This document shows positions 39,164 through 42,805 of a stretch of DNA of 64,000 nucleotides, piece by piece (the stretch's first letter is position 1; each line of letters starts with the position of its first letter). A model generated the notes under the pieces. It made no database searches. It saw only the letters and a program-made list of their open reading frames with translations, and was not told the origin of the DNA. A program made the translations under genes and the position numbers. The DNA lies in contig CM097882.1 of NCBI GenBank assembly GCA_044892505.1, forward strand, positions 524,644,001 through 524,708,000, read 5' to 3'. The DNA is from Schmidtea nova. Lineage: Eukaryota.

Positions 39164-40430
39164 NNNNNNNNNNNNNNNNNNNNNNNNNNNNNNNNNNNNN
39201 NNNNNNNNNNNNNNNNNNNNNNNNNNNNNNNNNNNNNNNNNNNNNNNNNNNNNNNNNNNNNNNNNNNNNNNNNNNNNNNNNNNNNNNNNNNNNNNNNNNN
39301 NNNNNNNNNNNNNNNNNNNNNNNNNNNNNNNNNNNNNNNNNNNNNNNNNNTTTTTATCATATTATTATCATATTATTATTATTTTTCTTATTATTATATT
39401 ATTATTATTATCATTATTATTATATTCTAATATGTCAATAATAAAATCTTTTGTGGATTCAAACTGCAGATTTGAGATTAGATTATTTTTCTGATATTAG
39501 TTAAATTTCTTTAGAAATTTCTTAAGAGATTTATTGATATTTCATTCACTTAAAAAAGTTTATTCAGAGTTTTCTTTTGGTTTTGATCAACCTTTCTGGA
39601 TAATATTAATTTAAATTCGTATTTTCTCTAAATTGTGCAAATGCTCCATAAAATGGAAGATACATTTTTGAATAACCAAATTTAAGACTGATAATTTGAT
39701 TTAATATAACTCCTTTATTTTGAGACTTTTCTTTTTTTATTTTGCAATTTATGGTAAATCATGTCTTACCATTCATAGAAAGTTTCCCAAATTTCTATAT
39801 TCTAGGAATATATTCTATTTGTTGTGCATTAAAACTATTTTGTATTTTTTTTTCAGCAATCAATCACATGGTTCGCTTTTCTTTTGAATTTATTGATAAT
39901 GCACATAATTTAATTCATTAATTTAAATTAATTGTCGTGTAACCGTGATATATCTCCTCCTTTTAAAATATTTTCCTCTGTCTGTCCGGTCTCAATTAGG
40001 AATCTTTACGTTGATTTGTATTGAAATATTTTGAATCATTAAGATGCAGTCTACTTTTTTATTTATATAATTACAGTGTTTTTTTCAGTCAGTTTCTATC
40101 TGTTTCATAATTTCTAAAATAATTGAAATAACTTTGTGATCACTTAAAGGATATTTTAAAACAAGTAAAAACAACAATAAAAATAATAAANNNNNNNNNN
40201 NNNNNNNNNNNNNNNNNNNNNNNNNNNNNNNNNNNNNNNNNNNNNNNNNNNNNNNNNNNNNNNNNNNNNNNNNNNNNNNNNNNNNNNNNNNNNNNNNNNN
40301 NNNNNNNNNNNNNNNNNNNNNNNNNNNNNNNNNNNNNNNNNNNNNNNNNNAAGGGAGAAATGGCTGTTGAATTTTTTCTCTCGCGTCTGTGTGCGCCTAT
40401 TTTCTTAATCGCGTCTGTGTGCGCGTTTCT

Positions 40431-40508
40431 TTTCTCTTCATCTCTTAAAATTACAAGCGGTCTTCCATATTCATCGATAGCTATTTGTGCAATTTGTCTT
40501 CCTGCCAT
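40431..40508 (-). other. CCT5: Captured CCT5 (TCP-1 epsilon) N-terminal fragment, antisense within the LTR (second copy 47855-47932)
   Basis: MAGRQIAQIAIDEYGRPLVILRDEEK versus CCT5 LAFDEYGRPFLIIKDQ. Confidence 0.75.
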
Positions 40509-40708
40509 TACTAATGGTAATTTCTAGTAGTAATGTATTATATTGTAATTGGTAATTTTAGATTTTGAGATTTTGATTTAATTGATTTGTAATTGTTATT
40601 GAATTGTAGGATTTTTAATTGTTGTTTTATTATTCCAATGGAAGTTTAACGGAGATTTTTTGATTTGAATTTAAATATTGCTTTGGAAGTATTTTGGTTT
40701 CGCTTTCG

Positions 40709-42805
40709 ATGTGGAAAATGGAACGTTCATTGCGTGATTCGTTTTGTGTTGTTAAAAGGTCACTGGAAAGTAAATCTGTTGTTCCTAGTGGTGGTGCATG
40801 TGAAGCCGCTTTGCATGTATATCTCGAGAAATATGCTATGACGATTAGTTCCAGAGAACAAATTGCAATTGCTGGATTCGCTAAAGCCTTGTTGGTTATT
40901 CCCAAGCAGTTGGCTGTCAATGCTGCCTTGGATCCTACTGAAATGTATCCTGAATCAAGACTCTGCTGGTTTAACAAAATGATATTTGATGACAATTTAA
41001 CCCAGTTTAATGCGATCGGTAGATTGTTTGGTCTTGCAATTTACAATAATGTTATGATTGATCTTCACTCTCCTCTTGTAATGTTCAAAACATTGTTTGA
41101 TCAAAATAAAAATGATTCCAAAACGGTTTTCGCTCGAATCAAAAATGGTAGCAGAGCGTGGTTCCCGTCGGGGGACCACGTACTTTTCGGAACATGGGCA
41201 ATACTGTTCTGGCTATCCAGCCAGAACAAGGTACCTTTTCTTAATCTATGTTTTTGTAATATCTTTGTACATTATTTTGAACTTTATTATTGTAAATTTT
41301 TATCTTGTGGTGAAACATTTTCCCCTCTGCCCTTTACCATGTTTTGCGGTGGGTTGGGTCCATTAAGGGACCGGAAAAGATGCTGCTATGGGCCCCAGCA
41401 TTCTTTTCAATTGGGGGACGAAATAGCCAGGAGAACAGATGGATATAGGAGATCTGTTCCTTTAATTGGAAAAAATAAAACGGGTGGGGCTTGTGTGAAT
41501 AAGGGGTGTGTTCCAAAAGAAATAATGTATAATACAGCGATGATTAGAGAGATAGGGCGAGAGGTTAAAAATTATAGATTTAAAATAAATTATGAGTGTT
41601 TCAACTGGGAAATCATTAAGCTAAAGCGAGATAGTTATATAAAAAATCTGAATAATAGTTTTGAAGTAAAATCTACAAGTGGGGATACGTTTTTGGGTGG
41701 GGAAGATTTTGATAATGTGCCGTTACAAAATATTGTTAATGAATTTAAACGTGATCCAGGCGTTGATGGTAATAAAGCCCCTATGGCTTCACAGAGAGTT
41801 AGAGAAGCAGCTGAAAAGGTTAAAAGTGACCTGTCATCAGCTATTCAAACGCACATTAATCTTCCATATTTGACAATGGATAATACGGGACCTAAACATT
41901 TGAGTTTAAGGTTCACACGGTCAAAGTTAGAGCAATTAGTGGAGCACCTAATTAAGAGAACAATTGAACCTTGTGAAAAAGGTATTAAAGATGCAGAGGT
42001 AAAAACATCGGGCATTAAAGAAGTGTTGGTAGTTGGTGGGATGACAAGAATGACTAAAGTTCAAGAAACTATGCAGAAACTTTTCGGTAGAGTTCCTAGT
42101 AAGAGTGTGAGCCCAGATGAAGCTATTGCGATGGGTGCAGCAATACAGGGAGGAGTTATTGCTGAGTATGTGACTGACGTATTATTGCTAGATGTTACAC
42201 CGCTTTCGTTGGGTATTGAAACTCTGGGCGGCGTTTTCACTAAGTTAATTAATCGAAATACGACTATTCCCGCCAAGGAATCAACTCTCGGTCTAGTTTT
42301 GAGATTGGGAGGGAGAATGCAAATATTTGTAAAGACGTTAACAGGAAAAACCATTACCATGGAAGTTGAATCAAGTTACACAATAGAAAAGGTAAAAACG
42401 AGAATACAAGACAAAGAGGGTATTCCACCGAGTCACCAACGTTTAGTATTTGAGGGGAAACAATTACGAGATGGCTGTAAATTGTCTGACTATAATATAC
42501 AAATGGGTTCAACCATATTTCTATTGTTGCGGTTGAATGGGGGAAGTCCCGTGACCGATGCCGAGTTTGAGGCAGGTTACAAAAGGCGAACAGGATTAAA
42601 AATAGCGTTAGGGCGGCTCCGTAATAAGGCGCTAGCTGAGTCAGTTGATTCCATGGAGGAACAAAACAGAAGAGAAGCTTATGAGGATAAGTATGAAGAA
42701 GTGGTGACAGAATTAGAAAAGCTGAAGCAGCAAGCTCGGGAATTAGAGAGAGGAAGCGAATTAAAGGATATTGAGAGAGATTGGAAGCGGAATTTAACCG
42801 AATAG
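40709..42805 (+). CDS. Chimeric ORF: TCP1-HECT-leader-GSR-mtHSP70-ubiquitin-Gag N-terminus
   Basis: 703 stop-free codons from TTG 40694 (first ATG 40709); fragments recognised as listed separately. Confidence 0.7.
40718..40942 (+). other. TCP1: Captured TCP1 (CCT alpha) fragment in the LTR
   Basis: [32 protein letters not shown]...[28 protein letters not shown] versus TCP1 [32 protein letters not shown]...SREQLAIAEFARSLLVIP. Confidence 0.9.
40943..41095 (+). other. Captured HECT E3 ligase fragment (UBE3A/HERC-like) in the LTR
   Basis: [10 protein letters not shown]...[31 protein letters not shown] resembles HECT N-lobe WF...F.LIG...GLAIYN...LD.HFP...Y.KL. Confidence 0.85.
41146..41163 (+). 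promoter_or_regulatory. Primer-binding site complementary to the 3' end of initiator tRNA-Met (second copy 48570-48587)
   Basis: TGGTAGCAGAGCGTGGTT, 4 nt after the LTR end; tRNAi-Met ends ...CTCTGCTACCA. Confidence 0.85.
41465..41656 (+). other. GSR: Captured glutathione reductase fragment
   Basis: [19 protein letters not shown]...[18 protein letters not shown] versus GSR GGTCVNVGCVPKKVMWNTA...FNWRVIKEKRDAYVSRLN. Confidence 0.85.
41660..42277 (+). other. HSPA9: Captured mitochondrial HSP70 (mortalin) fragment
   Basis: [18 protein letters not shown]...[16 protein letters not shown]...VGGMTRM.KVQ...[31 protein letters not shown]. Confidence 0.92.
42278..42544 (+). other. Captured polyubiquitin fragment: 13-aa tail of one unit plus one complete divergent 76-aa unit (42317-42544)
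   Basis: [27 protein letters not shown]...LRLNGG; 57/76 identical to canonical ubiquitin by my count. Confidence 0.95.

Follow-up and report, generated by a model that had tools for sequence, protein, structure and literature searches.

In a BEL/Pao retrotransposon of Schmidtea nova, an open reading frame made of host-gene pieces runs from the long terminal repeat through ubiquitin into Gag

Here we describe a BEL/Pao retrotransposon in a 64,000-nucleotide (nt) stretch of the Schmidtea nova genome (GenBank assembly GCA_044892505.1, contig CM097882.1, positions 524,644,001 to 524,708,000 of the forward strand; hereafter the window, in whose own numbering coordinates are given), in which host-gene pieces captured in the long terminal repeat (LTR) are fused in frame to the polyprotein. 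The plus-strand pieces form a single open frame of 713 codons (40664-42805) that crosses the primer-binding site (PBS) and contains, in order, TCP1, HECT, the PBS, a non-host stretch, glutathione reductase (GSR), mortalin, the tail of one ubiquitin unit plus a whole unit, and Gag. Other copies of the family carry single frames of 1,300-2,340 codons that extend from the 5′ LTR to the 3′ LTR. From the sequence we propose, with a probability of roughly 65%, that the RNA is translated from the host mRNA pieces within the LTR, across the PBS and into ubiquitin-Gag, and that cleavage after the Gly-Gly at the end of ubiquitin would free Gag-Pol.

The frame enters host-derived sequence in a TCP1 (CCT alpha) coding piece at 40704-40945 (+), which is 93% identical to the host TCP1 gene (locus L220; Pfam PF00118) and holds the first in-frame ATGs of the long open reading frame (ORF), at 40709 and 40718. 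At its end this piece shares the hexamer GAAATG with the HECT E3 ligase coding piece that follows it at 40939-41106 (+). The HECT piece has the spliced form of its donor, host gene L243, with a 5,046-nt GT-AG intron missing at 40981/40982; donor introns of 44 and 5,046 nt are missing from HECT pieces, and the window piece spans the second. The PBS (41146-41163, +) is complementary to the genome's own tRNA-Met genes and is itself an in-frame part of the ORF, read as GSRAW. Beyond it lie a GSR coding piece at 41426-41670 (+), in which three exons are joined and introns of 55 and 53 nt are absent, and a mitochondrial HSP70 (mortalin) coding piece at 41659-42282 (+), 92.8% identical to host gene L081 (Pfam PF00012). 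The last piece, at 42275-42544 (+), derives from polyubiquitin (76% nucleotide identity to host polyubiquitin L222, 58 of 76 amino acids, Pfam PF00240), and its whole unit ends LRLNGG directly before Gag. The names mortalin and GSR, and CDC14-like and ABCD below, are probable identities suggested by model hits. Intron loss is seen in the HECT and GSR pieces; no donor intron falls within the TCP1, mortalin, ubiquitin or CCT5 piece, and these are uninformative in this respect. The LTR and leader pieces are host-derived, and two of them, HECT and GSR, come from spliced mRNA. By plain alignment, short shared sequence was present at all five junctions compared. The pieces occupy the LTR and 5′ leader and do not replace internal element sequence, Gag-Pol being kept.

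Together with an antisense CCT5 piece, the TCP1 and HECT pieces account for about 531 of the 802 nt of the LTR, or some two-thirds. A preliminary description made from the window alone had the LTR assembled from host genes, with CCT5 antisense and TCP1 and HECT sense; all three pieces are there in those orientations, but 40551-40700 belongs to the LTR itself. This AT-rich LTR-native segment (40551-40703, +), which does not come from CCT5, is the probable transcription start and 5′ untranslated region.

The boundaries of the element rest on several landmarks. The 5′ LTR (40340-41141, +) is 802 nt long, its first 11 nt being N in the window; the 3′ LTR (47764-48565, +) is common to the element and a following partial tandem unit, and the two copies agree at all but 3 of the 791 positions that can be read. 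A G-rich polypurine tract at 47750-47763 is followed by TG at 47764, and CA at 41140-41141 and again at 48564-48565 is followed in each case by four A and a PBS, so that both of the sites from which the LTR limits had been drawn, the polypurine tract-TG (47764) and the CA-PBS (41141/48565), were found. By domain search, the region encoding Gag, protease (PR), reverse transcriptase (RT), RNase H (RH) and integrase (IN) occupies 42545-47763 (+) and ends with the polypurine tract, with Pfam matches to Peptidase_A17, RVT_1, DUF1759, Integrase_H2C2 and DUF5641; the window copy shifts frame near 42775-42805 and near 47100-47199. Paired TG...CA LTRs with a PBS and a polypurine tract, and the order Gag (DUF1759, Cys-His knuckles)-PR-RT-RH-IN with Pao-specific Pfam families, are both present, as in BEL/Pao elements. 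A 5-bp target-site duplication is found in the unique flanks of L033, L036, L038, L076, L155, L165, L248 and L249, and one of 6 bp in L073; the window copy is truncated at its right end. The partial tandem unit consists of a second PBS and leader with GSR and mortalin pieces (48566-49701, +) and stops short of ubiquitin, at a junction, 49701, that is known from the assembly only and has no coverage in sequencing runs X1, X3 and X4. These three runs cover the DNA flanking GSR at low depth and show tagmentation adapter ends, and for both reasons we treat them as DNA; all four runs examined behave as such. Tandem units that share one LTR are common in the family; head-to-tail arrays of 4-8 units at a regular spacing of 4.1-4.7 kb lie at C3:86545742-86560489, C2:10831241-10860970 and C1:323388335-323402188.

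The open frame upstream of Gag is a property of the family. Among 92 loci fetched around matches to TCP1, HECT or mortalin, 80 had a usable PBS and 12 were dropped. At least 100 open codons precede the PBS in the Gag frame in 68 of the 80 elements, against one element in each of the other two frames. Among loci chosen by a mortalin match, a choice that did not bear on the content of the LTR, the count is 27 of 34 against zero and zero. Nine kinds of donor occur in the LTR frames, all in sense orientation and all in the Gag frame: TCP1, HECT, a CDC14-like phosphatase, an ABCD transporter, ANAPC2 and an N6-adenine methyltransferase by Pfam, and Angel, ribonucleotide reductase M2 and calmodulin (with its own first Met) by PDB sequences. 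HSP90 pieces are present in some leaders. From one family member to another, the LTR cassette can be exchanged. In 77 of 82 elements an AATAAA is found 28-44 nt ahead of the PBS, and in 75 of these 77 it reads Asn-Lys in the Gag frame; this arrangement suggests a long repeat (R) region and a tiny unique 5′ (U5) region, and because the AATAAA sits so close to the PBS we place the coding cassette in R. Identity between paired LTRs has a median of 99.4% (53 pairs, four of them mis-delimited), and 8 of the 9 LTRs examined were solo LTRs with a 5-bp duplication. As lower bounds and not copy numbers, the genome holds at least 1,293 candidates by the HSP70 model and at least 1,136 by the HECT piece; a first-look count gave 2,601 ubiquitin candidates against 14 top-scoring units of host type.

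Several further observations concern these copies. In the 5′ flanks of L031-L186, 39 of 70 elements lie within AAT-type microsatellites, which suggests target preference or survival bias. Most fetched copies (L034, L036, L043, L067-L069, L080 and others) lack RT and integrase, and such copies have instead 300-500 codons of acidic, coiled-coil-like sequence without a Pfam match, in frame to the polypurine tract. L217 was first taken as the HECT donor and was ruled out, since it holds a solo LTR beside the exons of another HECT gene: the solo LTR, with its HECT cassette (L217:3799-4800), stands just upstream of unrelated HECT-ligase exons on the same strand, probably within an intron.

Gly-Gly stands before Gag in 84 of the 92 ubiquitin units found, with two units ending SG, one ending GE and five out of register. 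Ubiquitin-GG precedes three Gag types of this genome that are 28-43% alike, and the unit tails read LRLRGG in two Gag types, LRLNGG in the type of the window and LRLCGG in another. There is no Met at the start of ubiquitin in one Gag type and in the proteins P0121, P0166 and P0181, and this places initiation upstream. In several leaders (L093-L096, L131, L173, L177 and L179) a second ubiquitin unit, more diverged or partial, lies upstream of the GSR piece. At L036:613-4689, compared with window 40529-42465, an LTR and leader of the window type are joined within ubiquitin to another type of Gag, which makes ubiquitin a crossover point as well.

Outside this genome, a joint query of ubiquitin and Gag proved unusable because it was swamped by polyubiquitins. 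A Gag-only search for homologues gave 18 proteins, the best being P0121 at 35% identity, which consists of a DNAJA1-like N-terminal piece (E 7.7e-5), GSRAWFP, a ubiquitin-like unit (25 of 76 identities, ending LLGG) and Gag-Pol. A profile search of 1.84 billion representatives found ubiquitin ending in GG at the start of Gag in 5 of the 150 top Gag relatives (P0139, P0166, P0168, P0181 and P0190), while P0160 has only a KLKGG tail. The other 145 show no ubiquitin, many of them being N-terminally incomplete; a match to the N-terminus of Gag together with room for a whole upstream unit was seen in only 5 of the 150, and 3 of these 5 carried such a unit. The ESM Atlas returned generic DUF1759 matches only, at 0.80 or less. 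Six relatives outside the genome thus have ubiquitin-GG-Gag, at 21-40% identity in Gag, and both glycines are kept in all eight near-whole units, at 33-93% identity. Relatives without ubiquitin, such as the mollusc proteins P0143 and P0177, start with a Met of their own at about the position where GG ends. In a quick Gag tree of 50 rows, the ten rows that carry ubiquitin are set apart, together with one truncated protein, by a branch with a Shimodaira-Hasegawa-like approximate likelihood ratio test value of 99. Judged by the alignments, GG closes ubiquitin at the start of Gag even in deeply separated lineages, and the fusion appears to be old.

We next consider which parts of the frame are under constraint, calling a variant private when it occurs in one element and shared when it occurs in two or more. 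Stops and frameshifts are nearly all private in the mortalin piece (16 private versus 1 shared, P 0.0008), the GSR piece (14 versus 0, P 0.002) and ubiquitin (9 versus 1, P 0.003); such changes that spread are almost absent. Private variants scored against the host donors have a ratio of nonsynonymous to synonymous polymorphism (pN/pS) of about 1 in mortalin, GSR, HECT and ubiquitin. Among copies, the pN/pS of shared variants is 0.82 in mortalin, 0.69 in GSR and 1.04 in the non-host leader, and falls to 0.22 in ubiquitin, 0.26-0.31 in Gag and 0.09-0.13 in RT/RH/IN. The mortalin and GSR pieces thus look to be drifting near-neutrally, and ubiquitin looks constrained like Gag. From the pN/pS values and the stop contrasts together it would follow that the leader must stay open, that its largest pieces are little constrained as protein and that ubiquitin behaves like Gag.

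Such a pattern can be read in another way, which we consider unlikely. The frame might be open only because ribosome cover or escape from nonsense-mediated decay stabilises the RNA, with Gag made from an internal Met or from spliced RNA, and ubiquitin either staying in place, to help folding or to mark the protein for degradation, or being cut by the element's own protease. The near-neutral mortalin and GSR pieces are compatible with this, as are the frequent changes of Arg72 and Arg74 in ubiquitin and the non-autonomous members that keep a frame from LTR to LTR through unrelated filler. What it leaves unexplained is that GG is invariant at the exact boundary of Gag although identity over the remainder of the unit drops to 33%, that several lineages have no Met at the start of ubiquitin, and that in one LTR the start codon of calmodulin itself is in frame.

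Translation from the LTR with release of Gag at GG also has a number of results to contend with. The transcription start and the poly(A) site on which it depends are read from sequence, and four short upstream ATGs lie ahead of the ORF in the window LTR. The choice of loci by protein-family score gives an advantage to unbroken frames, and the copies are related to one another; of the recurrent distances from PBS to Gag, 9 of 12 are in frame and 3 of 12 are not. In the eight near-whole ubiquitin units Arg72 is kept in six and Arg74 in four, changes that could weaken cleavage by host deubiquitinases. The Gag tree came from a quick search and has long branches, and its grouping of the ubiquitin-bearing rows is provisional. 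The contrast between private and shared stops and frameshifts is not significant in HECT (4 versus 1, P 0.19) and is empty in TCP1 (0 versus 0). In TCP1 the private variants have a pN/pS of 0.36-0.46, and shared variants give 0.59 in TCP1 and 0.33 in HECT, on small counts, so these two pieces may not be pure junk. Twelve shared stop-type changes fall in the poorly aligned non-host leader, where they were scored in the codons of the window copy and not in those of the carriers, and the low pN/pS of ubiquitin may owe something to separate captures from host paralogues.

Taking translation from the LTR as the preferred reading, the life cycle would run as follows. Transcription would start in the LTR downstream of a cluster of repeated motifs, ribosomes would begin translation within the captured cassette and continue across the PBS, and a protease that recognises the LxGG tail would free Gag-Pol. 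During replication, as it extends the tRNA primer along R, reverse transcriptase could switch to a co-packaged abundant mRNA and then back; a template switch in R would place the capture in both LTRs and in sense orientation, and only in-frame products of capture would spread. Because the protease would free Gag at GG, the upstream extension would be largely disposable and would need only to stay open, and captures would therefore accumulate.

The captured pieces could alternatively have been selected as mimics of the host, whether as a disguise from PIWI-interacting RNAs (piRNAs), as sources of small RNAs, an idea already raised in the preliminary description, or as dominant-negative chaperone fragments that act on their donors. 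Most donors are indeed essential housekeeping genes, the pieces number a thousand or so candidates in the genome as lower bounds, and pN/pS in TCP1 and HECT is below 1. We nevertheless regard selection for mimicry as quite improbable, as cassettes are freely swapped among nine donors and the pieces have diverged from them by 7-11%, and the abundance of donor mRNAs alone would explain which of them are captured. Mimicry is compatible with translation from the LTR and need not exclude it. On a broader view, to which we would give a little under even odds, an old BEL/Pao clade traded the start codon of Gag for a ubiquitin release signal, which would have made R a translated, exchangeable cassette that keeps sampling abundant mRNAs and has spread chaperone, E3 ligase and ubiquitin pieces over the genome in about a thousand copies; the element may also take over start sites of the host or evade small-RNA silencing.

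The antisense CCT5 piece has a different standing. It lies at 40423-40550 (-), outside the ORF, is 98.4% identical to host CCT5 (L055), and comprises 42 nt upstream of the ATG (40508-40506) and most of coding exon 1; it too has short shared sequence at its junction. The preliminary description had counted about 200 bp upstream of the CCT5 ATG and proposed that this captured region serves as the LTR promoter in reverse. The piece is real and antisense and does include upstream sequence, but the match ends at 40550, after those 42 nt. Aligned to 1 kb of CCT5 upstream DNA, 40536-40700 scored 28 against 27.8 +/- 4.0 for 200 shuffles, 92 of which scored as high, and the same LTR stretch gave nothing better than E 0.11 against 1,486 nt of CCT5 upstream DNA. 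Used as a genome-wide query, the piece had 6 matches in 6 candidates, namely five LTRs at four insertion sites and the host gene. Among the 30 best LTR loci, chosen by LTR similarity, all keep 40551-40700 and 26 lack CCT5, which occurs in the other 4, and young paired LTRs without the piece are common. A reverse promoter from CCT5 is thus very improbable: no similarity extends further upstream, and all but five LTRs do without the piece, so that both the alignment to CCT5 upstream DNA and the other LTRs of the family go against it.

Two subunits of one chaperonin do coexist in this LTR, as had been remarked, but since the CCT5 piece is found in only five LTRs and the host gene this is the trait of a small recent sub-lineage. 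The expectation that insertions and solo LTRs spread CCT and HECT sequence holds for TCP1 and HECT, which travel with solo LTRs (8 of the 9 LTRs examined). The piece would be a recent passenger in the unique 3′ (U3) region, upstream of the frame, perhaps acquired through a switch during plus-strand synthesis or through DNA repair. Contigs of about 1.2 kb from runs X2 and X3 match 47854-47999/48003 and thus pass the assembly's CCT5 junction by 25-29 nt; they are probably graph chimeras through the shared piece. A 16-nt GC-rich motif, noted earlier as a CpG-rich duplication, is indeed present in two copies, at 40381 and 40409 (40381-40424, +). It recurs two to five times near the LTR start in 61 of 70 LTRs, although U3 is otherwise hypervariable across the family, and has no match in eight host donor loci. 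Because of this distribution the repeated U3 motif appears to be a better candidate promoter element than the CCT5 DNA.

Other features of the genome and the window stand apart from the element. The host genome is AT-rich and measures 1.25 Gb. A tandem array of tRNA-Met with a period of about 458 nt begins at C1:510090090 (L251), and the pattern has 1,036 matches genome-wide. An AT-rich family of palindromic or inverted repeats, with arms of up to 335 nt at 99% identity, occupies window 1593-2187, 2847-3008, 34201-34558, 37242-39350 and 63764-63983 and resembles miniature inverted-repeat transposable elements or foldback elements. The decayed coding-like sequence at 53220-54500 resembles, by eye, what we take to be Polinton/Maverick genes.

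Gene capture by LTR elements usually leaves a dead-end passenger inside the element, whereas here it seems to be built into the life cycle: the LTR is itself protein-coding and swappable, and ubiquitin would uncouple Gag from whatever has been captured. The hundreds of young copies form a natural series in which to ask whether captured sequence is tolerated or aids escape from piRNAs. In practice, the copies will confound read mapping, the design of RNA interference and gene annotation for TCP1, mortalin, GSR, the HECT ligase and ubiquitin in this species. We found no description of the combined architecture in the literature searched, which did not extend to subscription journals or Repbase reports.

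Its parts do have counterparts. With other BEL/Pao elements it shares TG...CA LTRs, a tRNA PBS, a polypurine tract, 5-bp duplications and a single Gag-PR-RT-RH-IN frame, and it differs in that Gag is preceded by a ubiquitin unit and by about 400-730 codons of frame derived from the host. Cassandra, Helenus and Ajax, which PMC10886601 presents as terminal-repeat retrotransposons in miniature, are small and non-coding, and their LTR holds a tRNA or 5S rRNA promoter; in contrast, the elements here are coding and 4.4-8 kb long, the captured pieces are protein-coding, and the window contains no tRNA gene. The planarian giant gypsy elements Burro/GYPSM1 have host-like and Ub/SUMO-like polyprotein domains (PMC6431247), but as portrayed there they are of gypsy type and about 30 kb long, with Gag N-terminal and the extra domains internal, and not recent spliced mRNA pieces in the LTR. 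In yeast Ty1, which has a 53-nt 5′ untranslated region, the start codon of GAG precedes the tRNA-iMet PBS, and the PBS is thus located within the coding region (PMC5454406). That position of start codon and PBS is the one proposed here, although Ty1, on that account, is of copia type, its frame is Gag itself, and it has neither a captured cassette nor ubiquitin.

The route of capture resembles LTR-mediated retroposition by micro-similarity template switching, including maize Bs1, in which partial, intronless pieces of several mRNAs are joined at junctions with about 5-14 nt of similarity and amplified further (PMC5131818). The retrocopies of that study, going by its main text, are internal and flanked by discontinuous elements, whereas here the pieces lie in the LTR and leader, Gag-Pol is kept and the fusion is in frame; the words "in frame" have no occurrence in that main text. 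The closest parallel to the proposed release of Gag comes from cytopathic pestiviruses, where, according to the accounts in PMC8310069 and PMC13517609, captured cellular ubiquitin acts as a polyprotein processing signal and the protein that follows it receives its authentic N-terminus from host ubiquitin C-terminal hydrolases. In both systems a ubiquitin unit ending in Gly-Gly stands directly before the protein to be released. The pestivirus insertions described there are sporadic and belong to an RNA virus, whereas ubiquitin here is a stable trait of a retrotransposon clade, before Gags that are 21-43% alike and with a cleavage predicted from sequence, which would make this family a retrotransposon parallel to the pestivirus ubiquitin insertions.

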